This document shows, piece by piece, positions 2,975 to 62,472 of a DNA stretch of 64,000 nt. The position numbers and the translations under genes were made by a program. The DNA comes from an uncultured Gammaproteobacteria bacterium. Its GTDB lineage: Bacteria; Patescibacteriota; Microgenomatia; CAZETR01; Amesbacteraceae. How positions within the stretch are numbered: position 1 is the stretch's first letter; each line of letters starts with the position of its first letter. Location: contig CAZIVL010000001.1 in NCBI GenBank assembly GCA_964543035.1, positions 303,736 to 367,735 of the forward strand, written 5' to 3'. The notes under the pieces were generated by a model, which saw only the letters and a list, made by a program, of their open reading frames with translations, did no database searches and had not been told where the DNA came from.

Positions 2975-5900
2975 ACTGTTATTGATTATATTGCCAGTAT
3001 TGCTTGCCGGAATGTGGTTTAAAGAAGGATTTGTCATGGGTGGAGGTGAAGGTGGACTTCCATTTCATGATCTTGTGCGTTCTGCCAATCTGACCAAATG
3101 GTCATGGGCTGATGCAGCTTTGGGAAACGGACTTGGAATTGGCACTGCAAGTTATCCGTTTTATTGGTTTCTTGCTCAACTGCAAATATTGGGTGTTTCT
3201 CCGGTCATAATTCAGGCTAGTGTATATGCATTTTTGTTTATATTAGGAGGGTTCGGAATTTACTATTTAGTTCAGGAGTCATTTCCAAACATCAATTCTA
3301 GATACGCCTTTTTGAGTTCTTTGGCATATTGGTTCAATCCTCTTTCAATGATAAATACTTGGAATCGAAACCTATCCAATTATATGGTTTTTTATGGTTT
3401 TTACCCGTTTATTACATGGATATTTATCAGAGGTCTGGCAAAACGCAACATCTATTTTGTAATGTTATCTGGACTTCTTACTGGAGTTTTCTCATACTCT
3501 CTTACTGCGACACCGTTCAATCTCTTAATGCTGGGAACATGGGGTTATGTTAGTTTGTGGTATTTTTTCATCGTTTGGAAAGGAAATCAGAAGTGGTTCG
3601 CTCTTCAATATTTGATATTGACAATAATTTGTTACATTGGTGTAAATTTCTGGTGGCTTGGACAATTATTTAGTTTTCTCGGTTCCTCTTATTACGCCTC
3701 AGCAGTTTCAGATTTTTTTACAACAGGGGGTAACTATGGAACTCTTGTCTCTTTAAGTGAACTCTTGGGAAGATTATTCAACATAACCAGGCTATATCAT
3801 GGATCATTTTATTACACTGCTCCAATATATTTTCGAATATTTCTCTCGCCTTTGCTTTACTTCCCAAACTACATATTTGTGGGACTTATTATATGGGTTA
3901 TATCAAAACGTCTGTCAGATAAACAAATTTTATTGTGGGGCTCAATATTTTTAGGAACTATATTTTTGATAAAGGGCACAAACCCTCCCTTAGGAGAAAT
4001 ATTTGGACTACTGTTTCAGAATTTATCTGTGTTACAGGTCTTTAGGAATCCTTTCGAAAAATTTGGTTTTTTGTTATCAATGGGATTTTCAGTATTGCTC
4101 GGTGTGGCCGTTTCACATCTAGAAAAAAATAAAAACGTGATTTTTACTTTTTGTCTATTGTTTGTGGGTATTGTGTGGGGATATCCATATTGGAGTTCAA
4201 TTGTATTTACTCGTACGACGACAAATTTGCAGGAGCCCGTCTCGCTGGAAGTGGAGGTCCCAAACGCCTATAAGGAGATCAATAGTTGGTTAAGTAGTCA
4301 GCCTTTTGAACACAGAGCGGTGGTTTTACCTATCAATGGGGAGGGTATGACATACACTTGGGACAAGCCCTACGCCGGTGTCGAACTATCAAGCACCTTG
4401 TTTGACAGACCAGTCGTGTCTTTCAATACTACAATTCCACTACTTTATGATTATGTAAATCAGATTCATAAATATCAAATCAGTTCCGATATTTTGAAAC
4501 TATTTCCATTTCTAAACGCTAAGTATCTAATCTGGAGGTCAGACATTGATTTTAAAGACAGAAGGACTGCCGATCCCGAAGTAATTCACAAGCTACTAAA
4601 TGAATGGGAGGATCAAGGATTAGTCACTTCAGAATCAAGTGCTGAATTCTTAAAAGTGTATTCAGTAAACGATAATTATGTTTGGCCCAAAATATATTCC
4701 ACAAAAAAGATTGTTTACTCAAATTCACGTGACCCGGTAAGCTTATCTCGAGTATATCCAAGCCTAACTGAGGATCCATCAGCTATCGTCAGCTCTTCAG
4801 GTGACTACTATCATATTCTCGAGCCTCTTGCAGTATATCCGTCAAAGTTTACAGAAACCCCCGTGACCCTTACCCAGGACGATTTACTTGCTAGATTGTT
4901 TCATGCCACTCATTTACCGGGAGATAAATATTACTTTCTCTCTCGTCTCAAGGAAAGATTGCAACTTCTGACTGACTCAAATTATGAGAGCAGGCACATA
5001 TTCGAAATTGGAATTTTAGGAAAAAGAGCAGTCGAAATATACAAACTTCATAAGAGTGGGGCTGACCCAAAAATAATCTCAAAATCTGAAACAGAATACG
5101 TAAATGAGTTGTTTAGAAAAAAGTCACAGTTTACAAACATTCTTTCTGCTCAATCGCAAATTTCTTCCTTACTTCGAGATTCACTCCTTTACCAATCTTT
5201 GCTACTGGAGACAACTGGTTGCAGTTGTACAGAAAAGATTGCTACATTAATGTTTGAATTAAACATCAAACCTCGTTTTACTCTACCGCAAACAGCCCCT
5301 GACAAATTTTTAGTTTACTACTTCGAAGTGCCATTAGCAGGGGAGTACACCATTAGTAGCTCACAAGTTCAATCCGAAGCCACCTGGTACATAGATGGAG
5401 AGCCCTTATCAAGCTCAAACACGAAGATCAGATTACAGCCAGGTATACACGAAGTCGCAATTCTAAATCTAGCTTACTCTAAGCCGGTATCGGTAATAAA
5501 TGAGACTTTTGAGATCGATACTACAAACAACAAGGAAATAAACATTGATTTGCCAGATTTAGCGGGAGAATATGTTGTAAAGTTTGATTTCTTATTTTCA
5601 GAAGGAAACAATTTTGACATTTCATTTATTCAAGACATTGATCAAAAAGGAAGCCCTACTCATATAGCCGCAGTGCAAAAAAATTCCAGGTTTCATGGAT
5701 GGGGAAGTTGGCAAACCTTTTTTACAACGAGCAACGGTGCAAGCACATTAAAAATGACCACTCAACCTGTTTCTGGTTCAAAATGTAAGAGTCAATGGTT
5801 GTTATTTACCAGTTGCAGCAAAAAAGAAGATACATACAAAGTTCAGATAAAAAATCTATCCTGGTCTAGACTCGAGCGCCCCTCTGTGTTTCTTACCCTC

Positions 5901-11530: not shown

Positions 11531-12756
11531 AGACTAGCACTGTTCGACAGTCATCAATAACCACAATCTCGACCTTTGCTTCAGCAGCTCTCGGGGCTGT
11601 ATTTTACTTGATACTGGCCAGGCTCCTGGGAACTTCAGATTACGGACTATTCTCTCTCAGTCTGTCCATATTGGTCACCTCGGTAACGATTGCCGATGTG
11701 GGAATGGGTCAGGGGATCATTAGATTTATTGGCGAAAACCGAGATTCAGACAAATATCTTGGATATGCCAATTTTGCACTCAAGACGAAGCTCTTTCTTG
11801 CACTTGTCTGTTGGTTGGGTCTAACACTCTTTGCCTCTCCGATAGCGAGTTTGATTAGTCAGCCCAGTCTCGTTGACACCCTTCCAGTAGTGGGTTTCGG
11901 CACTTTTGCGTTTATCATGGCCTCTTACTCGTTCTCCATGTTGCAATCCTTACAGAAATTTTCTATTTGGGGGGGGCTTCAGGTAGGTTCAAACTTGATT
12001 CGGTTGTTCATACTCTGGACTATGTCTTTTCTAGTCCCCGTCGATACCCACTTGGCCATTTTAGTCTTCGGTTTCACTTCTCTTTTTAGCTTTTTGCTAT
12101 CTTGGTTTTGGCTAGACAAAAAAATCTGGATAGCCAGATCAAATACGACACATGCATTACATTTTTGGAATTTCAACAAATGGACTGCATCATTTAGTAT
12201 GTTGTCGTCAGTGGTATCACGCCTAGATATATTTCTTGCCAGTCGGTATCTTGATCTGTCTACCATAGGCTCATATTCATTGGCAGTTACTATGGTTTCG
12301 TTCATGCCGCAATTATCGGTGGCGATTGGTGCAGTCACTTCAGCAAAGCTTGCAAATAAGTCTGATCCGCGCGATGCAAAGAGATATCTTCGAAAGTCTA
12401 CTATTTTTTTGACACTGGTCAGTATTGGAGTTGCACTGCTTATGATACCCACAGCCCTTGTTGTGGTCCGGTTTGCAGGAACAGGATATTCAGCAGCGCT
12501 TCCACCATTTTTCGTGCTTCTTGTGTCCCAAATCATCTTCATGATGGGCAACCCCTTAAGAGACTATATCCTCTACTTCCTCAAAACTCCCAGAGTCTTT
12601 TTTTGGACTGCCATTGTTCAAGGTATTGTAGTGGTGGTTTCGGGCGTATTGCTAATCCCCAAGTTTGGTAACGTAGGGACAGCCCTTTCGGTTTTTGCCA
12701 GTCTACTAGCTCTAACTGGGTCATGTCTCTACTTTTTCTATCGTAAAAGCAAATGA
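11503..12756 (+). CDS. Oligosaccharide flippase (Wzx/MOP superfamily polysaccharide biosynthesis protein)
   Basis: 417 aa, ~12 TM helices, typical Wzx topology; located in the glycan locus. Confidence 0.7.
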   Translation: MYNKIKSLLETSTVRQSSITTISTFASAALGAVFYLILARLLGTSDYGLFSLSLSILVTSVTIADVGMGQGIIRFIGENRDSDKYLGYANFALKTKLFLALVCWLGLTLFASPIASLISQPSLVDTLPVVGFGTFAFIMASYSFSMLQSLQKFSIWGGLQVGSNLIRLFILWTMSFLVPVDTHLAILVFGFTSLFSFLLSWFWLDKKIWIARSNTTHALHFWNFNKWTASFSMLSSVVSRLDIFLASRYLDLSTIGSYSLAVTMVSFMPQLSVAIGAVTSAKLANKSDPRDAKRYLRKSTIFLTLVSIGVALLMIPTALVVVRFAGTGYSAALPPFFVLLVSQIIFMMGNPLRDYILYFLKTPRVFFWTAIVQGIVVVVSGVLLIPKFGNVGTALSVFASLLALTGSCLYFFYRKSK

Positions 12757-19766: not shown

Positions 19767-21091
19767 TTCTTTCTCTGGCAGTCTTGTTGAGACTGTTCAA
19801 CCTGGATCAAAGTTTTTGGTTGGACGAAGCTTCGCAAGCTCAGATGTCATCACTTTCACCTCGGGCAATATGGTTTGACAGGGGGGGGGACTTTCACCCT
19901 CCTTTATTTTATCTTCTTGCCCACTTCTGGCTCTTGTTCGGAAAATCTGAAGTCTGGTTGAGACTGCTCCCGGTATCTTTTGGTGTGATAAATGTTTACA
20001 TAATATATTTACTGGCAAAAAAAGTAATTCCCGGGCAACAGATTCTAGCGAGTTTCCTCCTGGCCATCGCCCCATTTCATATCTACTACTCTCAAGAGTT
20101 TAGGTCTTACTCACTCCTATGTTTACTAGGGACGCTATCTATGTACTTTCTATTTCAAAAAAAATATATGTCACTTATGATAGTCAACTCACTCCTTTTT
20201 TACACCCACTACTCATCTATCTTTTTACTACTTACCCAGCTGTTTCTTGTGCCAAAAGCAGATTATAAAAAATACTTGATACATAATACATTATACTTTT
20301 TGCTGATCATTCCCTGGCTACCTCAATTTGTTCATCAACTAAATTCCGGTGTAAACATCGACAATTATTTGCCAGGCTGGCGAAATGTACTAAGCCTTCC
20401 TGTACTCAAGGCCTTTCCAGTCACAGTCTTCAAGTTAGTTGCAGGTAGAATAAATTTCTTATCTAGATATCTTTACGGCATGTACATTGTCTTTGTATTT
20501 GCTGTCACTTTTTCAGCTTTCTTTGTAGCCCGAGCCCAAAAGCGTTTTCTTTTCATTTGGGCATTGGTACCTGTATTTATAATGATGCTGGTCTCGTTTG
20601 CCATACCCCAGAGTCAGCCATTTAGAGTAATTTTTGTATTACCAGCTTTTATACTGCTTATGACTCAAGCAGGCAGCAAGTTTCCCAAGCTTTTTCTGAC
20701 ATTTTTTATATACATAGCCCTTACCGGAAATATAACCTATTACACCCGGCCTCGGATTCAAAGAGAAGACTGGAGAGGCGCGATCTCCTTTCTTGCTACA
20801 AAAAATATGCCCATAGTCATCAAGTTCTCTGGCAATTTTGCCCCCATCACCTGGTACAATCCCAGTCTTCCCGTAATAGCAGCAGTTCCTCATTATCCAG
20901 CTAGTTCCCAGGACGTAACATCTAAGCTTATTCCCTTGTCTACCCAAAAATCAGTCTTACTGGTAGATTACTTGGGAGAACTTACTGATCCCAACAGAGT
21001 CACCGACCAGATTTTGGGTGAGATGGGCTTTGTAGCGGGTCGGGTCCACGACTTTTCGGGGGTTGGTTTTATTCGTGAGTATCACCGATGA
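19733..21091 (+). CDS. GT-C glycosyltransferase, ArnT/PMT (GT39/GT83)-like
   Basis: TM1 followed by the RLFNLDQSFWLDEA loop motif typical of PMT_2/ArnT family; about 11 TM helices; contains a G9 homopolymer. Confidence 0.8.
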   Translation: MGKNSKITLIIVLSLAVLLRLFNLDQSFWLDEASQAQMSSLSPRAIWFDRGGDFHPPLFYLLAHFWLLFGKSEVWLRLLPVSFGVINVYIIYLLAKKVIPGQQILASFLLAIAPFHIYYSQEFRSYSLLCLLGTLSMYFLFQKKYMSLMIVNSLLFYTHYSSIFLLLTQLFLVPKADYKKYLIHNTLYFLLIIPWLPQFVHQLNSGVNIDNYLPGWRNVLSLPVLKAFPVTVFKLVAGRINFLSRYLYGMYIVFVFAVTFSAFFVARAQKRFLFIWALVPVFIMMLVSFAIPQSQPFRVIFVLPAFILLMTQAGSKFPKLFLTFFIYIALTGNITYYTRPRIQREDWRGAISFLATKNMPIVIKFSGNFAPITWYNPSLPVIAAVPHYPASSQDVTSKLIPLSTQKSVLLVDYLGELTDPNRVTDQILGEMGFVAGRVHDFSGVGFIREYHR

Positions 21092-22359: not shown

Positions 22360-23377
22360 CATTTCGTCGGTCATCTTTAGGACTGGTGTATCCAGATATA
22401 CCCAAGAATTGGTTCGTCATCTGCCGAATGATTTGCTGCTTCCGTTTGGATTTTCTATGAGAAGAGGAGGGGAGTTTCCTGCAGGCACCAAAGTCTTCCC
22501 CCTCCCCCCGACTGCCATGCACTATTTATGGAACAAATACCACACCCTAAGTGTAGAATCTTTGGTGGGGGACATGGATGTCTATCACTCGTCAGATTGG
22601 GCCCAGGGGCCGAGTCGGGCCAAAAAAGTCACTACTATCCATGATCTGTCCCCATTTTTATTTCCCGAGGAGACTGATTCTCAGATTTTGGCTGTTCATA
22701 CTGCTCGTATGAAGTGGGTTATCAAGGAATGCGATGCCGTTATCTGCGTATCGCAAAATACCGCCTCAGATCTACAAAAATTATTCAATTATCCTTCATC
22801 AAAAATCCACATCATCCCCGAAGCTCTACCCACACCACACCAATTATCTCCTGATACATCATACGTTATACCAGATACATCATACTTGTTAGCCATCGGC
22901 GCCCGCCAGCCCCGAAAAAACATCAAGCGCCTTATCTCAGCTTATTTAGCACATCGGTCCAAGTACTTTCTCCCCGAAAAACTCATCATTATCGGGGAAA
23001 TACCTGATACAACATACAAAATACATGATACGGTCCAGTTTACTGGTCCCGTCTCAGACCAAGATCTGGCAGGCTACATGCGAGGCGCCGAGGCTTTTGT
23101 CTATCCCTCTCTCTACGAAGGCTTTGGGCTACCCATTCTTGAAGCTTTTCACCACCAAGTTCCTGTGGCCGCTTCAAATACCTCGTCAATCCCAGAAGTA
23201 GCAGGCAGCGCTGCAGTACTTTTCGATCCCCTTGATGAGGAATCGATAGCCAAAGGCGTGGCTGACGCCATAAAAAATAAAAAGAAATTAATTTCAGCCG
23301 GCACAAAGCAGTTATCCCATTTCAGCTGGACCAAGACAGCAGAAAAGACTTTGGAGGTGTATAAAAGCTTATGCTAA
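22343..23377 (+). CDS. Glycosyltransferase family 4
   Basis: EGFGLPILEAFHHQVPV motif; 344 aa; contains tandem 21-nt duplication. Confidence 0.8.
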   Translation: MRVAIDISSVIFRTGVSRYTQELVRHLPNDLLLPFGFSMRRGGEFPAGTKVFPLPPTAMHYLWNKYHTLSVESLVGDMDVYHSSDWAQGPSRAKKVTTIHDLSPFLFPEETDSQILAVHTARMKWVIKECDAVICVSQNTASDLQKLFNYPSSKIHIIPEALPTPHQLSPDTSYVIPDTSYLLAIGARQPRKNIKRLISAYLAHRSKYFLPEKLIIIGEIPDTTYKIHDTVQFTGPVSDQDLAGYMRGAEAFVYPSLYEGFGLPILEAFHHQVPVAASNTSSIPEVAGSAAVLFDPLDEESIAKGVADAIKNKKKLISAGTKQLSHFSWTKTAEKTLEVYKSLC

Positions 23378-24489
23378 TAGGAATTGATGCCAATGAGGCA
23401 AATTTGACCCAAAACCGGGTGGGTATCAACCAGTATGCTTTTGAGCTGTTGCATGCCCTCTACAATCTCGACACCCCACACATATTTGTCATATATCTTA
23501 AATCCAAGCCCCAGCCAGATCTGCCGGTCGCCCGAAAAAACTGGCATTATAGGGTCATTCCTTTTCCCAAGCTCTGGACCCAGACCAGGCTGCCTGTGGA
23601 TCTCTTTACTCACGCTCCCAGCCCTACGGTTTTCTTTAGCATGACCCACTACGCCCCCCGCTGGTCACCCGTTCCCACGGTCGTGGCCATCATGGATCTG
23701 GGTTTTTTGAGCTCTCCCGAGCAGTTTACTCCCCGCGATTTTAATCAGCTCAAATCTTGGACACACTATTCAGTAAAAAATGCCAAAAAAATTATTGCCA
23801 TCTCCCAATTTACCAAGGAAGCCATCCAAAAAGAATACAAGCGCGCAGAGGGGGACATCATAGTTACCCACCTGAGTTACAACTCTTCGTTATTTAAGCC
23901 CACTCATAATTCCCAGATTCTCGAAAAATACGGCATCACAAAACCTTATATTTTGTTTCTTAGTAGCCTCAAACCCAGCAAAAATATAGAGCGACTCATT
24001 GAAGCCTACAAAATACTAAATACTAAATACAAAATACAAGATACAAAGTTAGTCATCTCAGGCAAAAAGGCCTGGCTGTTTGACCAAATATTCGCCAAAG
24101 TAAAGAGTCTGGGTATAGAAGACAGGGTTATTTTTACGGGTTTTGTAGAAGAAAGCGAAAAACCAGTTCTTATGACAGAGGCCTCGGCTTTTGTCCTGCC
24201 GTCCCTATACGAGGGATTTGGTATCCCGGTTCTCGAGGCCATGGCTTGTGGGACTCCGGTCGTAATATCCAAGATAGCCAGTCTTCCGGAAGTAGCAGGT
24301 TCAGCTGGCATTTTTGTAGACCCCCTTGATGTAAACAGTATTGCAGACGGCCTACAAATAGCCCTTGGCCCCAGATCACAAGAATTTGTGAAAAAGGGAC
24401 TAAAAAGGGTACAATCATTTAGCTGGGATAGGTGTGCAAAGGAGACTCTAACTGTCATTCTGAGCGCAGCGAAGAATCCAGTAGTATGA
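23371..24489 (+). CDS. Glycosyltransferase family 4
   Basis: [18 protein letters not shown] motif; 372 aa; last 11 codons are formed by the recurring motif copy A. Confidence 0.8.
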
Positions 24490-36073: not shown

Positions 36074-36125
36074 ATCCCCCTTGTCATCCTGCTCGCGAAG
36101 CGGAAGGATCCAGTACAATTCATTT

Positions 36126-36688: not shown

Positions 36689-36922
36689 ATGAGTCCTATT
36701 AAAATTGAGAACTCCGAACTTCGAGATGTGATAGTCAGAAAGCCAGCCTCTATTGCGATCGGGGGAATCCCGGTTAATCTATACCCCGATAATGAAGGCG
36801 GGCTCGTCGTAGTCCCCTCGTTAGGACTAAATGAATTAGGTCTTTCAGGCACATTTGAACTAAGTAATGGTTCAGTTATTGTAATCAAAGACACGCTCTT
36901 TACTGGCACAAGGGAAACCTAG
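36689..36922 (+). CDS. Hypothetical small protein
   Basis: 77-aa ORF between recO and the glyS promoter; no motif. Confidence 0.3.
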   Translation: MSPIKIENSELRDVIVRKPASIAIGGIPVNLYPDNEGGLVVVPSLGLNELGLSGTFELSNGSVIVIKDTLFTGTRET

Positions 36923-36928
36923 AAAAAG

Positions 36929-37095
36929 TTGACTGTAGACCTACAAAGAATCTATAATAAACATATCTATTACTTGCGATGATCCAAAATGGCATTTGGG
37001 GAGTAAGGAAGAGACAAAAAGAGAAGCAACTAGGGTGGAACCACGACGCAGCTCGTCCCTAATTAATGTATTATTAATTTTGACGAGCATTTTTA
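36929..37095 (+). promoter_or_regulatory. sigma70 promoter plus T-box riboswitch leader (glycine specifier GGC) of glyS
   Basis: TTGACT (36929-34) 18-nt spacer TATAAT (36953-58); specifier hairpin CCAAA/TTTGG with loop AUGGCA; T-box AACTAGGGTGGAACCACG 37028-45; hairpin GCTCGTC/GACGAGC + ATTTTTA ending at the ATG. Confidence 0.7.
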
Positions 37096-38370
37096 ATGGC
37101 TGACTTAATAGAAAAAGTGGTCTCGCTCTGTAAAAGGAGAGGTTTTGTATTCCCCGGTTCCGAAATTTATGGCGGACTGCAAGGATTTTATGACTACGGT
37201 CCACTAGGGGTCGAGATGAAAAACAATCTTAAGAGATTGTGGTGGAAATGGTACACAGTTGAGCACGAAAACGTGGTCGGTATCGATGGCGCCATCATCA
37301 CTCATCCCAGAGTCTGGGAAGCCTCAGGACATGTAAAAAGTTTTGTAGATCCCATGTCAGAGTGTTTCGACTGTCACAAACGGTTCAAAGCCGACGATCT
37401 TGAAGCCGGTCAAGCTTGTCCCAACTGTGGTGGCAAGCTGGGTGAACCCAAAAACTTTAATATTTTGATGAAAACCGAGTTAGGTGTCATCGAAGGTGAA
37501 AAAACTCCCACATATCTGCGTGGCGAGGCCTGTCAGACAATTTACCTGGATTTCAAAAGTGTAGTTGATTCTACTCGTGTCAAAGTCCCGTTTGGTATCG
37601 TCCAGATCGGAAAAGCTTTTCGAAACGAAGTCACACCAGGAAATTTCTTGTTTAGACAACGCGAGTTTGAGCAGTGGGATCTGCAGTGGTTTACCCATCC
37701 CGATGAGATGGATAAGTGGTTTGAGTATTGGAAAGAAGAGCGCATGAAGTGGTATCGAGGTTTATTCAATGATCACTCCAAACTCACCTTTTTCCAGCAC
37801 GACAAGCTGGCTCATTACGCCAAAAAAGCTTTTGATATCCAGTACGACGGTCGTGAGATGGAGGGTATCCATTGGCGCCAGGATTGGGATCTGGGCCGTC
37901 ACAGTGAGTTTTCCGGCCAGGATCTCTCGTACACCGATGAATCAGGAAACAAATACGTCCCCTGGATAGTCGAGACTTCCGGAGGTGTAGACCGAGCATT
38001 TTTATTTTTGCTCCTAGACGCCTATCTGGAAGAAGGGGATAGAGTCATTCTGAAATTACATCCCAAGCTCGCTCCTTACAAAGTGGCAGTGTTTCCCTTG
38101 GTTCGAAACAAACCAGAATTGACTGCCCGTGCCCAAGAGCTTTACAGACATCTCAAATTAGAAGAAGGCATCTCCACAGTCTGGGATGATCGGGGAAACA
38201 TCGGTAAGCGTTACTATGCCCAAGACGAGATCGGTACCCCCTGGTGTGTAACAGTCGATTATCAGACTCTGGAGGATGATACAGTGACTGTTCGCGACCG
38301 CGATACTGCCACCCAAGAGAGACTCCCCATCTCAGAACTTGACTCTTACTTCGCAAATAAATTAAAGTGA
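37096..38370 (+). CDS. glyQS: Glycine--tRNA ligase (alpha2 type, GlyQS)
   Basis: CKRRGFVFPGSEIYGGLQGFYDYGPLG N-terminus characteristic of dimeric GlyRS; class II motifs; 424 aa. Confidence 0.9.
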   Translation: MADLIEKVVSLCKRRGFVFPGSEIYGGLQGFYDYGPLGVEMKNNLKRLWWKWYTVEHENVVGIDGAIITHPRVWEASGHVKSFVDPMSECFDCHKRFKADDLEAGQACPNCGGKLGEPKNFNILMKTELGVIEGEKTPTYLRGEACQTIYLDFKSVVDSTRVKVPFGIVQIGKAFRNEVTPGNFLFRQREFEQWDLQWFTHPDEMDKWFEYWKEERMKWYRGLFNDHSKLTFFQHDKLAHYAKKAFDIQYDGREMEGIHWRQDWDLGRHSEFSGQDLSYTDESGNKYVPWIVETSGGVDRAFLFLLLDAYLEEGDRVILKLHPKLAPYKVAVFPLVRNKPELTARAQELYRHLKLEEGISTVWDDRGNIGKRYYAQDEIGTPWCVTVDYQTLEDDTVTVRDRDTATQERLPISELDSYFANKLK

Positions 38371-38426
38371 CACCAATACATTTATCGGTGTCATCCTGAG
38401 CATTGCGAAGGATCCAGTATAAATTT

Positions 38427-50423: not shown

Positions 50424-50457
50424 GTAGACCCCACCTTCCTGCGCCAGAGAAAATAAT

Positions 50458-50649
50458 ATGAAAGTAGAGGCCCCAGTAGTGGTAGGAATTTTTACAACGG
50501 GAATAGTTGGGTTATTCTCGGTCTTGAACCAATACGAAACATTTTTGTCCAATCCAGATAACTTTGACCCAAAAATGTTTTTTGGAGGACTGCTATTATT
50601 GGCATCCATGACATATTTGGTTATTAGATGTAGGTCAGACAGGAGATGA
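50458..50649 (+). CDS. Small two-helix membrane protein
   Basis: 63 aa, two hydrophobic helices separated by an F..P..F turn. Confidence 0.35.
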   Translation: MKVEAPVVVGIFTTGIVGLFSVLNQYETFLSNPDNFDPKMFFGGLLLLASMTYLVIRCRSDRR

Positions 50650-50819
50650 TAAAAGACAGACTCCACAGGCGACTGGCCTATACAGCCCTCGCAGTTTCAA
50701 GCTTTGTAACAATTGATCAACTGTGGGGCACTCTATTTGGAGAGAAGTTTGATCCTGTGGTAGCACTCGGGTCTTTAGCTACAGCTATCGTGTGTGCTGT
50801 TCTTATATTGAAGAAATAA
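50646..50819 (+). CDS. Small two-helix membrane protein (not in ORF track, <60 aa)
   Basis: ATG 50646, 57 aa MIKDRLHRRLAYTALAVSSF...AIVCAVLILKK; 4-nt overlap with the previous small ORF; similar helix-turn-helix hydrophobic pattern. Confidence 0.3.
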   Translation: MIKDRLHRRLAYTALAVSSFVTIDQLWGTLFGEKFDPVVALGSLATAIVCAVLILKK

Positions 50820-50863
50820 GATATTTACTTGAACTGTCACATAATTTCTGATAAAGACAATAC

Positions 50864-51064
50864 ATGGATAGAGATTGGCTAAGAAGAACTCTTGCTTTAT
50901 CAGCTTTTATTGGAGAGTTGATAGCTGGTCCGGTCTTAATAACGTCTTTTCCTGAACAAGCTGGCACTCTGGTACAAGCTTGGATAGTCACACTAGTTGC
51001 TACCGCAGCATTAGGATGTGTCCCTGCCAATATCAATAATCCAGAAAGCCCCGCCGGTTTGTAA
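50864..51064 (+). CDS. Small two-helix membrane protein (questionable)
   Basis: 66 aa, hydrophobic; ends just before the ileS promoter. Confidence 0.25.
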   Translation: MDRDWLRRTLALSAFIGELIAGPVLITSFPEQAGTLVQAWIVTLVATAALGCVPANINNPESPAGL

Positions 51065-51075
51065 GTCGGATGTTG

Positions 51076-51238
51076 TATAATTATCAAGCAATACTTCGCG
51101 ATCAACGAAGTGCACTGGGGAAGAACGCTTGTCCTGAGCTTGTCGAAGGATCTTGCAAGTAGAACCCCACTCGAATTAAGAAGCAATCAAGGTGGTACCA
51201 CGCATTACATGCGTCCTTGTATTAATATATACAAGACC
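51076..51238 (+). promoter_or_regulatory. T-box riboswitch leader (isoleucine specifier AUC) of ileS
   Basis: TG-extended TATAAT 51076-81; hairpin CTTCG/CGAAG with terminal loop CGAUCAA (AUC+A at 51101-04); T-box AATCAAGGTGGTACCACGC 51185-51203; hairpins ACGCAT/ATGCGT and CTTGTAT/ATACAAG abutting the ATG. Confidence 0.65.
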
Positions 51239-54070
51239 ATGTTCAAATCAGTCTCATCTCAAGTAGATTTTATAGCTTTGGAAAAGGAGCTCCTCAAGTG
51301 GTGGTATGAAAGCGGCGTCGTAAAGAAATATCTTCAAAAAAACAAGGATAGTAAGACAAAATTCTCATTTTTAGACGGTCCAATTACAGCCAACAATCCC
51401 ATGGCCATTCATCACGCCTGGGGCAGGTCATACAAAGACTTGTGGCAAAAGTATCACACCATGAAAGGGGACGCCGGTCGTTATCAAAACGGTTTTGACT
51501 GCCAAGGGCTGTGGGTTGAAGTAGAAGTCGAAAAAGAGCTGGGCTTTAAGTCCAAAAAAGACATCGAGACCTATGGTGTGGCCAATTTTGTAAACAAGTG
51601 CAAAGAGAGGGTTTTAAAGTTTTCTGCCATGCAGACCGAACAGACAAAGAGATTAGGCAATTTCATGGATTGGGACAACTCTTATTTCACCATGTCCGAT
51701 GAAAACAATTATTGGATCTGGAAGTTTTTGAAGACTTGCTGGGAGAGGGGCTGGCTGTACAAAGGTCACGAGTCCATCCCCTGGTGCCCGAGGTGTGAAA
51801 CCGCTATTTCTCAGCACGAGATTCTGACCGAGGACTACAAAGAAGTCGTGCACGAATCGGTGTATCTAAAACTTCCATTGGTAAAAAATCCAGAAGAACA
51901 TCTACTAGTCTGGACTACCACTCCCTGGACCATTCCGGCAAACATCGCAGTGGCTGTAGACGAAAAGCTTGAATACGCTCTGGTGAATAAATGTTGGGTC
52001 GCAAAAGATGCGGTTGAGCGTCTGTTTGGCAAAGATGCTGTTGTTGAATCCACACTGTCAGGCAAAAAATTAGTAGGCCTCAAATACACCGGCCCTTTTG
52101 ATGACCTGCCCGCAGTTCAGGAAGTGGCCAGTCATCCTCTATTTCATACCGTCGTGGCCACTGATTCTCAGATCATGCCCATTACCATCACCGAAGGAAC
52201 TGGACTTGTTCATACTGCAGTCTCTGCTGGCCTGGAGGATTTTCAGCTAGGCAAAAAGCGAGGCTTACCCTTGATTCCAGTTATTCAAGATGACGCAAGT
52301 TACTTTGCCACCATGGGATTTTTATCCGGGAAAAACGCCAAAAAACATCCCGAGCTGGTGATCGACTATCTAAAGACTAATGACTATTTACTAAAGACTG
52401 AGCACTACAAGCATCGTTATCCTGGCTGTTGGCGTTGCAAGTCGGAGCTCGTTTGGAAAGTGGCCGACGAATGGTACATCGGTATGGACAAGCCCGATCC
52501 CACCCATCCTCAAAAGCAGACCCTAAGAGAGCAGATGGTCGAAGTTGCCAGGGAGATCAATTGGTTACCATCCTTTGGATTGGATCGCGAGCTGGATTGG
52601 CTAAAAAACATGCACGACTGGCTGATATCCAAAAAAAATCGTTACTGGGGACTCGCTCTTCCTATATATGAATGTGGCAGCTGTGGACATTTTGAAGTCA
52701 TAGGTGGCCGTGATGAGCTTCAGGATAAGGCAGTCGAGGGCTGGGACAAATTTGATGGCAACAGTCCCCACAAACCCTGGATCGATGAAGTCAAGATAAA
52801 GTGTTCAAAATGTGAGGCGACAGTCTCTCGCATACTGGATGTAGGCAACGTCTGGCTCGATGCTGGCATCGTGCCATTTTCGACTCTCCCCGCAGACTGG
52901 TTCCCAGCCGATTTCATTACAGAATCGTTCCCCGGTCAGTTCAAAAACTGGTTTTACTCCATGATTGTCATGAGTACCGTCATGGCCAAATCGATTCCTT
53001 TCAAGACCGTCTTGGGATATGCCACCGTTCTGGCCGAAGATGGCAAGCCCATGCATAAGTCGGCCGGCAACTATATAGAGTTCAACGAAGGTGCAGACAA
53101 GATTGGCGTCGACGTCATCCGCTGGATGTATGCCACCCACAAGCCCGAGGACAATATCCTATTCGGTTACAAAAAAGCTGACGAAACCAGACGTCAGTTT
53201 CATCTCATACTGTGGAACGTTTATAACTTCTTCATTACCTATGCAAATCTGGATAAATTCGAGCCTGAGAGTATCCCAGCCCACCTGTCAATGTCAGTTT
53301 TGGATAATTGGATATTTGTGCGGCTTTCCGAGACCATAAAATCAGTCACAGATTCCCTGGACAAATATGATCCCTTCGCAGCCTCGCAAGCTGTAGAAGA
53401 TTTTGTCTCGGACCTCTCGCTCTGGTATGTCAGGCGTTCCCGGGATCGCGTAGGTCCTACAGCCGTAGACCAAGAAGACAAAACATCTTGTCTCACTACT
53501 CTCTACACCGTGCTCACCACCTTGTCCAAATTGCTAGCTCCTTTTATGCCGTTTATGTCCGAAGAGATATACAAAAACCTTACCGGTGAGGAGTCAGTGC
53601 ATCTTTCCGATTGGCCCTCTTCCCAAAATCAAGCAGCTGCAGATCTAAAATTGATTGAGGATATGAAATTGGTCAGGAGGATTGTGGAGCAAGGGCTAGC
53701 CGCACGCAAAGCCGCCGGTATAAAAGTCCGCCAGCCACTCCAAAAAATTACGGTCACCTCGCCCGAGTTGGGGTCCGAGCTTGCTCAGCTCATAAAAGAC
53801 GAGCTAAATATCAAAGAAATAGTCTGGTCCAAAGGTGATGATCTGTCCGTCGTTTTGGACACTGATATCACTCCAGAGTTGCAAGAAGAAGGCCAGCTGC
53901 GCGAGCTCATGCGCACAGTTCAGGATCTGCGAAAAAGCCAAAACGCCAGACTCGACCAAAAGGTTATCCTTACTCTCATCGAAATGCCGACAAATCTGGA
54001 GGAACTCAAGCGCCAGGTATTGGCAAAAGAAGTAAGAGTTGGTCCAGAGGTTACAATAGAGTTGGTATGA
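51239..54070 (+). CDS. ileS: Isoleucine--tRNA ligase (divergent signature motifs)
   Basis: GFDCQGLWVE, WCPRCETAISQHEI...SVYLKL editing/CP1 hallmark, KMSKS-like PMHKSAGN; start at MFKSVSS after the T-box leader. Confidence 0.85.
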   Translation: MFKSVSSQVDFIALEKELLKWWYESGVVKKYLQKNKDSKTKFSFLDGPITANNPMAIHHAWGRSYKDLWQKYHTMKGDAGRYQNGFDCQGLWVEVEVEKELGFKSKKDIETYGVANFVNKCKERVLKFSAMQTEQTKRLGNFMDWDNSYFTMSDENNYWIWKFLKTCWERGWLYKGHESIPWCPRCETAISQHEILTEDYKEVVHESVYLKLPLVKNPEEHLLVWTTTPWTIPANIAVAVDEKLEYALVNKCWVAKDAVERLFGKDAVVESTLSGKKLVGLKYTGPFDDLPAVQEVASHPLFHTVVATDSQIMPITITEGTGLVHTAVSAGLEDFQLGKKRGLPLIPVIQDDASYFATMGFLSGKNAKKHPELVIDYLKTNDYLLKTEHYKHRYPGCWRCKSELVWKVADEWYIGMDKPDPTHPQKQTLREQMVEVAREINWLPSFGLDRELDWLKNMHDWLISKKNRYWGLALPIYECGSCGHFEVIGGRDELQDKAVEGWDKFDGNSPHKPWIDEVKIKCSKCEATVSRILDVGNVWLDAGIVPFSTLPADWFPADFITESFPGQFKNWFYSMIVMSTVMAKSIPFKTVLGYATVLAEDGKPMHKSAGNYIEFNEGADKIGVDVIRWMYATHKPEDNILFGYKKADETRRQFHLILWNVYNFFITYANLDKFEPESIPAHLSMSVLDNWIFVRLSETIKSVTDSLDKYDPFAASQAVEDFVSDLSLWYVRRSRDRVGPTAVDQEDKTSCLTTLYTVLTTLSKLLAPFMPFMSEEIYKNLTGEESVHLSDWPSSQNQAAADLKLIEDMKLVRRIVEQGLAARKAAGIKVRQPLQKITVTSPELGSELAQLIKDELNIKEIVWSKGDDLSVVLDTDITPELQEEGQLRELMRTVQDLRKSQNARLDQKVILTLIEMPTNLEELKRQVLAKEVRVGPEVTIELV

Positions 54071-61546: not shown

Positions 61547-62472
61547 TCCTTACTGTTCTCAATGAGGTTGGTTTGGTGGGTCAAACTGTAGATGCATTAC
61601 TTCATCAGACAAAAAAACCTGATGAAATAATTGTAGTCGATGGAGGATCTACCGATGGGACATGGGAATTTCTTGCAAAACAAAAGAATATTCGAGTCTT
61701 CAAGTACCCCAGCAACAGATCCCTTGGCAGAAATTACGCCATATCAAAAGCCCGCTATCCCTTAATTGCTATTACCGACATCGGCTGTATCCCAGAATCT
61801 GACTGGTTAGAAGAGCTTACAAAACCATTCGTTGCCAAAGATACTCAAGTGGTCAGTGGGTTTTACAAAGGTCTATACAAAACAATTTTTGAAAAAAGTC
61901 TAATTCCTTATGTTCTTGTCATGCCAGACAAAGCAGGCGCTACCGAATTCTTTCCAGCGACCAGGTCTATGGCTATCACAAAATCACTGTTTGAAAAAGT
62001 TGGAGGCTTTGATCCGGATCTAAATTATAGTGAAGACTACAGTTTGGCTCACAGACTAAAAAGTATGGGAATAAGTTTTGTCTTTGCAAAAAAGGCTGTA
62101 GTATCTTGGGTCCCCAGATCTACTCTTAAAGAGGCGTTTTGGATGTTTCTCTTTTTTGCGATCGGTGACATCAAAGCCGGAATTATCAGACCCAAGGTGC
62201 GCATACTTTTCATTCGCTACTTTGTCTTTTTCTTTATATTCTCTTTGCTGCTGGAGCTAAATACTTTATACATAATACATTATACGTTATACGCATTTGT
62301 AATTTATTGTTTGTGGGCTGTTGCAAAAAATTATCGCTACGTGCGTGACCTACGTGCCTTCTTCTGGTTGCCGGTGCTACAATTGACAGCAGACATATCC
62401 GTCCTTTTTGGATCATTGATTGGAATGTTGTCAAAAAAATGGGTTACACAGTCGCAGCAGCCAAAGGTCTGA
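61522..62472 (+). CDS. Glycosyltransferase family 2, membrane-anchored
   Basis: VSVILTVLNEV...VVDGGSTDGT, ITDIG; C-terminal TM helices. Confidence 0.75.
   Translation: MARQKVSVILTVLNEVGLVGQTVDALLHQTKKPDEIIVVDGGSTDGTWEFLAKQKNIRVFKYPSNRSLGRNYAISKARYPLIAITDIGCIPESDWLEELTKPFVAKDTQVVSGFYKGLYKTIFEKSLIPYVLVMPDKAGATEFFPATRSMAITKSLFEKVGGFDPDLNYSEDYSLAHRLKSMGISFVFAKKAVVSWVPRSTLKEAFWMFLFFAIGDIKAGIIRPKVRILFIRYFVFFFIFSLLLELNTLYIIHYTLYAFVIYCLWAVAKNYRYVRDLRAFFWLPVLQLTADISVLFGSLIGMLSKKWVTQSQQPKV

Follow-up and report, generated by a model that had tools for sequence, protein, structure and literature searches.

An oriented hairpin repeat at gene junctions of a Patescibacteria genome is probably a DNA-level element of the Ssn/SRM kind

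Introduction

In Neisseria, the repeat known as NTS (CGTCATTCCCGCGMAVGCGGGAATCYRG) is the target of SsnA, a 94-aa single-domain GIY-YIG protein (cd10448) that binds it solely as single-stranded DNA of one strand and cleaves a few nucleotides upstream (Chenal et al., Nat Commun 2025, PMC11893778). Cleavage requires the 3 nt upstream of the NTS palindrome, and for binding no base matters more than the C that directly follows it. The same work defined a degenerate "Ssn-related motif" (SRM), which typically flanks ssn genes, and dRS3, the core of the NTS, is a reported phage recombinase target (PMC11893778).

Short intergenic hairpins with a tag, often arranged as inverted doublets, also make up the REP/REPIN sequences that accompany RAYT in E. 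coli and Pseudomonas. Like the repeat described here, they are often located at the 3' ends of genes and differ from one relative to another. REPs, however, are species- or genus-specific, whereas the 31-mer described here is nearly identical across more than 10 phyla, carries another tag, and has a GIY-YIG rather than a Y1 HUH partner. REP elements in E. coli protect mRNA 3' ends. Rickettsia palindromic elements (RPE) resemble the present repeat in a different respect, namely that they lie in frame within genes and add a short peptide, as found here for a GT4 glycosyltransferase, for the IleRS of one relative (L243), and for the DSSLRSE ends of GIY-YIG proteins; RPE are 100-150 bp long and confined to Rickettsia, whereas the present repeat is about 31 nt.

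Here we examine a motif that recurs in a 64,000-nt stretch of Patescibacteria DNA (the window). On our reading, the motif probably represents a repeat of the Ssn/SRM kind, REP-like and operating at the level of DNA, and not a translational regulator. Its hairpin class is undescribed in the literature that we searched and is missed by the published SRM pattern, and it is not a new kind of system.

Results

Copies in the window

The window is compact, with 43% GC and nearly all genes on one strand, and derives from a member of the Patescibacteria (Microgenomates, Amesbacteria-like); its GC skew, computed for the replication strand, is weak. The original prediction had named four + strand sites sharing a hairpin-forming motif, and their coordinates, strand, and hairpin are as described there. 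Three are full copies of a motif of about 31 bases (A, B, and C), and the fourth (D) is a decayed relative:

24453-24483, + strand: copy A, full GA-type repeat, TGTCATTCTGAGCGCAGCGAAGAATCCAGTA (TGTCAT tag, ATTCT/AGAAT stem, tandem G.A, GC-GCA-GC tip, C-CAGTA tail)
36082-36115, + strand: copy B, variant interior, TGTCATCCTGCTCGCGAAGCGGAAGGATCCAGTA; in a 52-nt spacer between the stop of a DUF4012 gene (36073) and the recO ATG (36126)
38389-38419, + strand: copy C, full GA-type repeat with an ATT loop, TGTCATCCTGAGCATTGCGAAGGATCCAGTA; in a 56-nt spacer between the stop of a class II aminoacyl-tRNA synthetase (aaRS) gene (38370) and the ATG of a hypothetical gene (38427)
51131-51152, + strand: copy D, core only, decayed or related, GTCCTGAGCTTGTCGAAGGATC

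Copies A and C are 31-mers of the form TGTCATYCTGAGC-NNN-GCGAAGRATCCAGTA. The outer parts of copy B, TGTCATCCTG...GAAGGATCCAGTA, are intact and its hairpin is kept, while its interior reads CTGCTCGCGAAGCGGAAG (also written CTCGCGAAGCG), with the 5' G.A replaced. Copy D retains the core TCCTGAGC...CGAAGGATC and is missing CCAGTA as well as 2 nt of the TGTCAT tag. The consensus first drawn for the four sites describes A and C, but not B, which lacks its GAGC...GCGA core, nor D, which has the core only. The pattern TGTCATYCTG-N7-16-GAAGRATCCAGTA has three matches in the window, all on the + strand, whereas 300 Markov simulations yielded none and about 1e-7 are expected analytically; the pattern TCCTGAGC-N1-9-CGAAGGA, which matches C and D, averages 0.00 in 100 shuffles. 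A loose tag-plus-stem scan of the window performed no better than on shuffles, and we claim no degenerate extra copies. The 9.7 kb of the source contig beyond the window contain no further copies.

The aaRS stop and the TGTCA tag of copy C are both covered by an inverted repeat, TGACACC-N12-GGTGTCA, at 38368-38393. This repeat may have arisen by chance, or it may compete with copy C as the latter folds.

A widespread repeat family with a conserved fold

Judged by sequence, copies A to C are solitary members of an oriented, hairpin-forming DNA repeat family, for which we use the name GA type. From 5' to 3', members consist of a tag, (T)GTC, a 5-bp stem, AT(Y)CT / AG(R)AT, a tandem G.A/A.G mismatch, and a tip of 2-6 bp that usually carries a GNA triloop; a C directly follows the palindrome and is in turn followed by CAG(TA). 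The family consensus is TGTCATYCTGA-[short stem, GNA loop]-GAAGRATC(CAGTA). Its exact core, GTCATYCTGAGC-N1-9-GCGAAGRATC, occurs in at least 120 IMG/VR contigs, and the window variant with the CCAGTA tail in at least 115 genome contigs from more than 10 phyla. Among the hosts listed are Chlorobi, Ignavibacteria, Kapabacteria, Verrucomicrobia (Opitutaceae), Fibrobacter, Beta-, Gamma- and Deltaproteobacteria, Planctomycetes, Atribacteria, Peribacteria, Absconditabacteria/SR1, and Paceibacterota. More than 10 phyla and many phage-like contigs carry the repeat with nearly the same sequence. Cultured phages (INPHARED) are essentially free of GA-type copies. In 106 of 159 family copies the loop is GNA (GCA 40, GAA 35, GGA 19, GTA 12), and in 140 of the 159 the base before GTCAT is T.

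The difference between ATCCT/AGGAT and ATTCT/AGAAT, which the original prediction had read as a compensatory change, is real and is one instance of a general rule in viral and genome contigs alike. At this variable stem pair the viral contigs have T-A in 94 copies, C-G in 64, T-G in one, and C-A in none, and the genome contigs 75, 41, and 1. Covariation extends beyond this single pair of substitutions. Across 29 distinct 31-mers, in which the variable-pair positions were unconstrained by the search pattern, all three variable pairs covary through double changes: U-A (19) vs C-G (10), G-C (16) vs A-U (12), and C-G (23) vs U-A (2). Paired combinations fill 98.5% of cells vs 91.4% in shuffles, none of 500 shuffles reaches the observed value, and sliding the partners abolishes the pairing. 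The element is an imperfect palindrome within the range of 20-50 nt, maintained by covariation at three variable pairs. The folding energies of single copies do not stand out (z from -1.5 to +1.1), and predicted single-stranded DNA folds match the structure with weak energies, so that support for the hairpin comes from covariation and not from thermodynamics. The unpaired flanks, TGTC and C-CAG, are as strongly conserved as the stem, which points to sequence-specific recognition.

The peptide VILSxAKxPV, noted earlier as common to the copies in one frame, is a mere consequence of the conservation of the DNA. We also considered a hammerhead, K-turn or loop-E reading of CUGA...GAA and rejected it; the core is incomplete and a three-way junction is missing. 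Searches of the open-access literature with the motif, its reverse complement, and its peptide translations returned unrelated primers only.

Numerous other GTCAT-tagged hairpin classes, e.g., GTCATTGCGAGG...CGAAGCAATC, occur in viral contigs (L018, L021, L044, L250, and L278), where some copies are nested or halved, such as TCAGAATGACAA. Different classes often share a single array, suggesting that they belong to a large superfamily whose interiors are modular.

Relation to NTS, SRM and GIY-YIG genes

A string search with a proteobacterial cousin of the repeat, GTCATTCCCGC, led to the Ssn paper. Several features of the GA type correspond to NTS/SRM: (i) Both have an oriented 5' GTCAT tag. In the general form (H)GTC(W)(Y), this tag adjoins or enters the palindrome of copies A, B, and C, which read TGTC-AT.... 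(ii) The palindrome starts with AT(T/C)C and ends with G(A/G)AT. (iii) A C lies right after the palindrome and is followed by YRG; the NTS reads ...GGGAAT-C-YRG, and copies A to C read ...AGRAT-C-CAG-TA, where YRG is CAG. (iv) Both are multi-copy and mostly intergenic, and both flank small single-domain GIY-YIG genes, the GA type doing so in genomes other than this one. Copy D lacks the tags that the NTS requires and has ATC-TTG after the palindrome, so that only the C is retained. The interiors differ, being CTGA-[GC-GNA-GC]-GAAG with the conserved tandem G.A in the GA type, whereas the NTS interior is fully paired (CCCGCG-MAV-GCGGG). Neither copies A to D nor the canonical GA type match the published SRM pattern, HGTCWYN(0-2)YYVSBRHN(0-5)WNVSBRGN(0-2)RNCYNB, which has no match anywhere in the window.

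Linkage between GA-type repeats and GIY-YIG genes is observed in other genomes. Among the genome loci selected by the motif, L185 (Opitutaceae) has a gene for a 108-aa GIY-YIG protein (PF01541, 1.5e-16) with a GA-type copy at either side, and L179 has a GIY-YIG gene flanked in the same way. Among the 120 homologues nearest to the L185 protein, 45 contain a motif-derived peptide; 44 of these end in (D)SSLRSE* or DPSLRSG*, which is CTGGATTCTTCGCTNCGCTCAGAATGA, the in-frame reverse complement of the motif, and P0107 and P0124 have HPERSE or HSERSE near the N-terminus, which corresponds to a forward copy. In an alignment, the catalytic residues Y9, Y20, and E67 of the L185 family have the same spacing as Y6, Y17, and E64 of SsnA; the PDB holds distant UPF0213 GIY-YIG proteins only and no SsnA. 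Within an independent set of 45 viral-contig loci of GIY-YIG homologues, 23 have the published SRM and eight the canonical NTS (at most one mismatch), typically with a forward repeat about 20-40 nt upstream and a reverse repeat about 25 nt downstream of the gene. Other viral GIY-YIG loci, such as L278, carry GAG...CGAAG-type hairpins. In these respects the candidate GIY-YIG family behaves like the Ssn family of Chenal et al., with the GA type as one class of flanking repeat. The 73.7 kb of the source genome that we searched (the window and 9.7 kb beyond) contain no GIY-YIG (Ssn) gene.

A short hairpin with an unpaired 5' tag would also fit a repeat of the REP/REPIN or IS200/IS605 type that owes its mobility to a Y1 HUH transposase (RAYT/TnpA) instead of a GIY-YIG nuclease. 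The repeats are intergenic, with some enrichment between convergent genes (17 vs 6), and REPIN-like inverted doublets are common. However, the tag is GTCAT and not the GTAG or CGTC of REP/REPIN, and the tags are identical to those of the NTS, whose partner enzyme is known. Clustering of the ORFs neighbouring 120 viral copies recovered phage structural genes only, with no shared enzyme and no recurrent transposase, and the single-domain GIY-YIG gene is the only recurrent, tightly linked gene that was found. We regard mobilisation by a Y1 HUH enzyme as very unlikely.

Insertions at gene junctions

The order DUF4012 - recO - ... - aaRS - hypothetical - mraZ is conserved in relatives of the source genome. 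No element is present at either junction in L241 (RecO 61% identical) or L237 (55%), where DUF4012 and recO overlap and the aaRS gene is 4 nt from the next gene. The recO junction of L238 (RecO 78%) is occupied by an inverted doublet made up of TGTCATCCTGAGGCGCGCCGAAGGATCCAG and, after it, TGTCATTCTGAGCGAAGTGAAGAATCT in reverse complement. In L240 (RecO 82%), the recO junction (L240 positions 1-80) has a GA-type copy and then NTS-type CGTCATTCCCGTGTAAACGGGAATCCAG / CGTCATTCCCGTGTAAACGGGAATCCAGTA in tandem, and the aaRS junction (3205-3240) has an NTS-type SRM, CGTCATCCTCGCGAATGCGGGGATCCAG; both NTS-type copies match the published SRM pattern. The flank that follows the element, CCAGTACAATTCAT (CAATTCAT..ATG), is common to the L240 recO junction and copy B. 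GA-type and NTS-type hairpins thus coexist and substitute for each other at orthologous sites.

From this pattern of presence and absence, copies B and C are lineage-specific insertions relative to L241 and L237, with interiors that turn over fast and tags that stay. The same comparison accounts for the placement of the copies immediately before genes. Intergenic space is near zero, orthologous pairs without an element overlap or lie 4 nt apart, and the 52- and 56-nt spacers amount to an element plus about 20 nt, which makes the copies look "start-proximal".

Repeated rewriting of the same two junctions, which carry different variants in L238, in L240, and in the window, would also be explained if the repeat were a double-stranded recombination or integration target, comparable to dRS3 with the Neisseria filamentous-phage recombinases or to REPs with IS110-family elements; dRS3, the NTS core, has been reported in that role. 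No integrase or IS element adjoins any copy in the window, though, and the conserved tandem G.A in place of a perfect palindrome, together with the strict orientation, indicates a folded single strand. We give this possibility very little credence, and a role as recombination target would add to the Ssn/SRM reading and not replace it. A recombination scar, one of three options originally offered, is rejected on copy number, covariation, and the conserved, oriented tags. Another of the three, a REP/MITE-like small repeat, is borne out by the size of the cross-phylum family, the inverted doublets in 70 of 117 genome copies, and the presence or absence of copies in syntenic relatives.

Contigs of assembly GCA_964356705.1 (CAYHIN01; L238, L159, L160, L174, and L196), titled 'uncultured Gammaproteobacteria bacterium', are syntenic with the Patescibacteria window and densely populated with GA-type repeats; this MAG seems to be either mislabelled or misbinned.

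Copies inside reading frames

Whereas B and C are intergenic, copy A supplies the last 11 codons (362-372) of the GT4 glycosyltransferase gene (23371-24489), as had been predicted. The GT4 stop codon (24487-24489) lies 3 nt past the copy and forms an ATGA start/stop overlap with the following hexapeptide acetyltransferase gene, whose ATG (24486) is 2 nt after the end of the copy. Homology of the GT4 protein to a paralogue and relatives ends at residue 359-362, exactly where copy A starts; a search for an ortholog against which to compare the insertion returned paralogues only. As read from these alignments, copy A is an in-frame insertion at the 3' end of the GT4 gene, comparable to the DSSLRSE tails and to a copy in L243. 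There, a GA-type repeat at 11842-11868, GTCATTCTGAGCCAAAGGCGAAGAATCCAG, lies in frame inside the essential ileS gene and replaces about 13 residues of a variable linker of IleRS with ...KSHSEPKAKNPGGP..., the gained peptide being SHSEPKAKNPG.

Evidence for and against a role in RNA

The third option originally offered was a translational regulatory hairpin, and a broader version of it is that of a cis-acting RNA hairpin, original or co-opted, that is transcribed in sense between co-directional genes and protects the 3' end of the upstream mRNA or modulates re-initiation or coupling downstream. The full copies do lie on the coding strand with short spacers after the preceding stop codon (overlap for A, 8 nt for B, 18 nt for C), and CCAGTA ends 2 (A), 10 (B), and 7 nt (C) before the next ATG. 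All three are sense-oriented and solitary, as an RNA element would be (n=3), the fold is maintained by covariation, and copy D is located inside what is probably an RNA leader.

The remaining observations speak against such a role. The Shine-Dalgarno-like arm GAAGGA is 14-17 nt from the ATG (its GGA ends 17 nt before it in B and 14 nt in C) and not within 5-10 nt upstream, and in copy A the arm is GAAGAA, which is not Shine-Dalgarno-like. The hairpin is missing from the same junctions in the relatives with 55-61% RecO identity (L237 and L241), and hairpins with other interiors occupy them in the closer relatives L238 and L240. Elsewhere, orientation relative to flanking ORFs is unbiased (30 same-strand vs 33 opposite at viral loci, 20 vs 12 at genome loci), an inverted partner lies at most 70 nt downstream of 70 of 117 genome copies as TGTCAT...ATGACA doublets, commonly with spacers of about 12 or 24 nt, and distances to the next start codon are broadly spread; together these properties are REP/REPIN-like and unlike those of an element in a 5' leader. 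None of the copies is followed by a U-tract (the tails after A, B, and C are CCAGTAGTATG, CCAGTACAATTC, and CCAGTATAAATT), and a + strand scan for intrinsic terminators was negative at A-C. Conservation of the unpaired GTC and CCAG across phyla fits recognition of DNA by a protein, as for the NTS. Finally, the only Rfam matches in the window are one tRNA and two weak T-boxes, and no Rfam family matched the motif in a whole-window scan at gathering scores or in scans around B, C, and D at E <= 10. We therefore set aside the translational hairpin and consider an RNA hairpin in the broader sense unlikely, while an added RNA effect (3'-end protection or uncoupling of translation) is possible, given three sense copies only.

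Copy D and the T-box leaders

Copy D lies inside a probable ileS T-box leader, in agreement with the original prediction:

51093-51218, + strand: ileS T-box leader, context of copy D; ileS ATG at 51239

The leader consists, in order, of a short specifier hairpin (51093-51111), a Stem II-like helix, and the T-box core (51185-51218). In the predicted fold, AUC-A occupies the 7-nt loop at 51099-51105 of the specifier hairpin, and the Stem II-like helix (GGGG...CCCC with GAA / AGUA) has copy D as its apex. Against the Rfam T-box family the core scores 26.4 bits (E = 5e-4), short of the 93 required by the gathering threshold. In L243, whose IleRS is 90% identical, the leader is conserved and GTCCTGAGCCAGTCAAAGGAT is found at the same apex, whereas relatives with 72-75% identity have no leader upstream of ileS. 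One of two origins accounts for copy D: an old repeat that decayed within a loop able to tolerate it, or convergence on a similar hairpin.

Stem I of the ileS T-box (51093-51238) is ultrashort, consisting of a 6-bp hairpin whose 7-nt terminal loop carries the AUC codon and an A; together with the Stem II-like helix, this resembles actinobacterial ileS T-boxes. A helix, CUUGUAUUAAUAUAUACAAG, ends 3 nt before the ileS ATG. A second T-box leader, at 36846-37063, precedes the class II aaRS gene (37096-38370). Its match to Rfam spans the full length but is weak (25.5 bits, E = 0.004), and neither T-box of this CPR genome reaches the standard Rfam gathering threshold. An apparent 815-nt gap before ileS contains three small ORFs (50424-51064) of about 57-66 aa, hydrophobic and membrane-like; they are absent from L243, which has one 75-aa ORF before the leader.

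Discussion

By analogy with NTS and SsnA, the element would act on DNA, not RNA. Once single-stranded, during replication or as incoming or phage ssDNA, the tagged strand would fold, and a small single-domain GIY-YIG nuclease of the Ssn family would bind the fold and nick a few bases 5' of the tag. The repeats would multiply into intergenic spots like REP/REPIN. In the window, B and C, as insertions, would have pushed apart genes that formerly overlapped or abutted, A, also an insertion, would have replaced the last codons of a gene, and D would be a relative that has decayed or been co-opted at the end of a T-box helix. That an Ssn enzyme recognises and cleaves the repeats and that they spread in this way is what we consider most likely from the analogy; in this genome they may be active, relict, or served in trans.

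The comparisons also raise four more specific suggestions. The GA-type hairpin, with its tandem G.A and GNA mini-hairpin, may define a distinct Ssn/repeat pair. In the ultra-small genomes of CPR bacteria, it may be actively reshaping the junctions and ends of genes and even a riboswitch helix. The nuclease may be supplied in trans by phages or hosts, with no resident gene. And the GA type may act on incoming ssDNA, as NTS and SsnA do in Neisseria transformation, in CPR bacteria, which depend on DNA uptake. Taken jointly, as an undescribed Ssn/repeat pair that remodels CPR junctions through a nuclease in trans and acts on incoming ssDNA, the four form a tentative and somewhat doubtful reading.

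With the motif explained as a DNA-level repeat, a "regulatory-looking" sequence need not be annotated as an RNA switch, nor its translations as real peptides. The Ssn/SRM system is extended to a hairpin class outside the published pattern, to Patescibacteria, and to uncultured phage contigs, which suggests a second specificity class for site-specific ssDNA nucleases, of biotechnological interest. Repeats of this sort can come between genes that are translationally coupled, change the C-termini of proteins, and lie within essential genes.

The window also holds a second, distinct repeat, a 30-nt AT-rich sequence (AAATACTTGATACATAATACATTATAC) whose copies are 73-93% identical and lie inside four different ORFs:

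20270-20299: AT-rich repeat, reading-frame offset 0
22998-23027: AT-rich repeat, reading-frame offset 1
24018-24047: AT-rich repeat, reading-frame offset 2
62259-62288: AT-rich repeat, reading-frame offset 2

Because the copies are read in different frames, this repeat appears to be a DNA-level motif within coding sequence.
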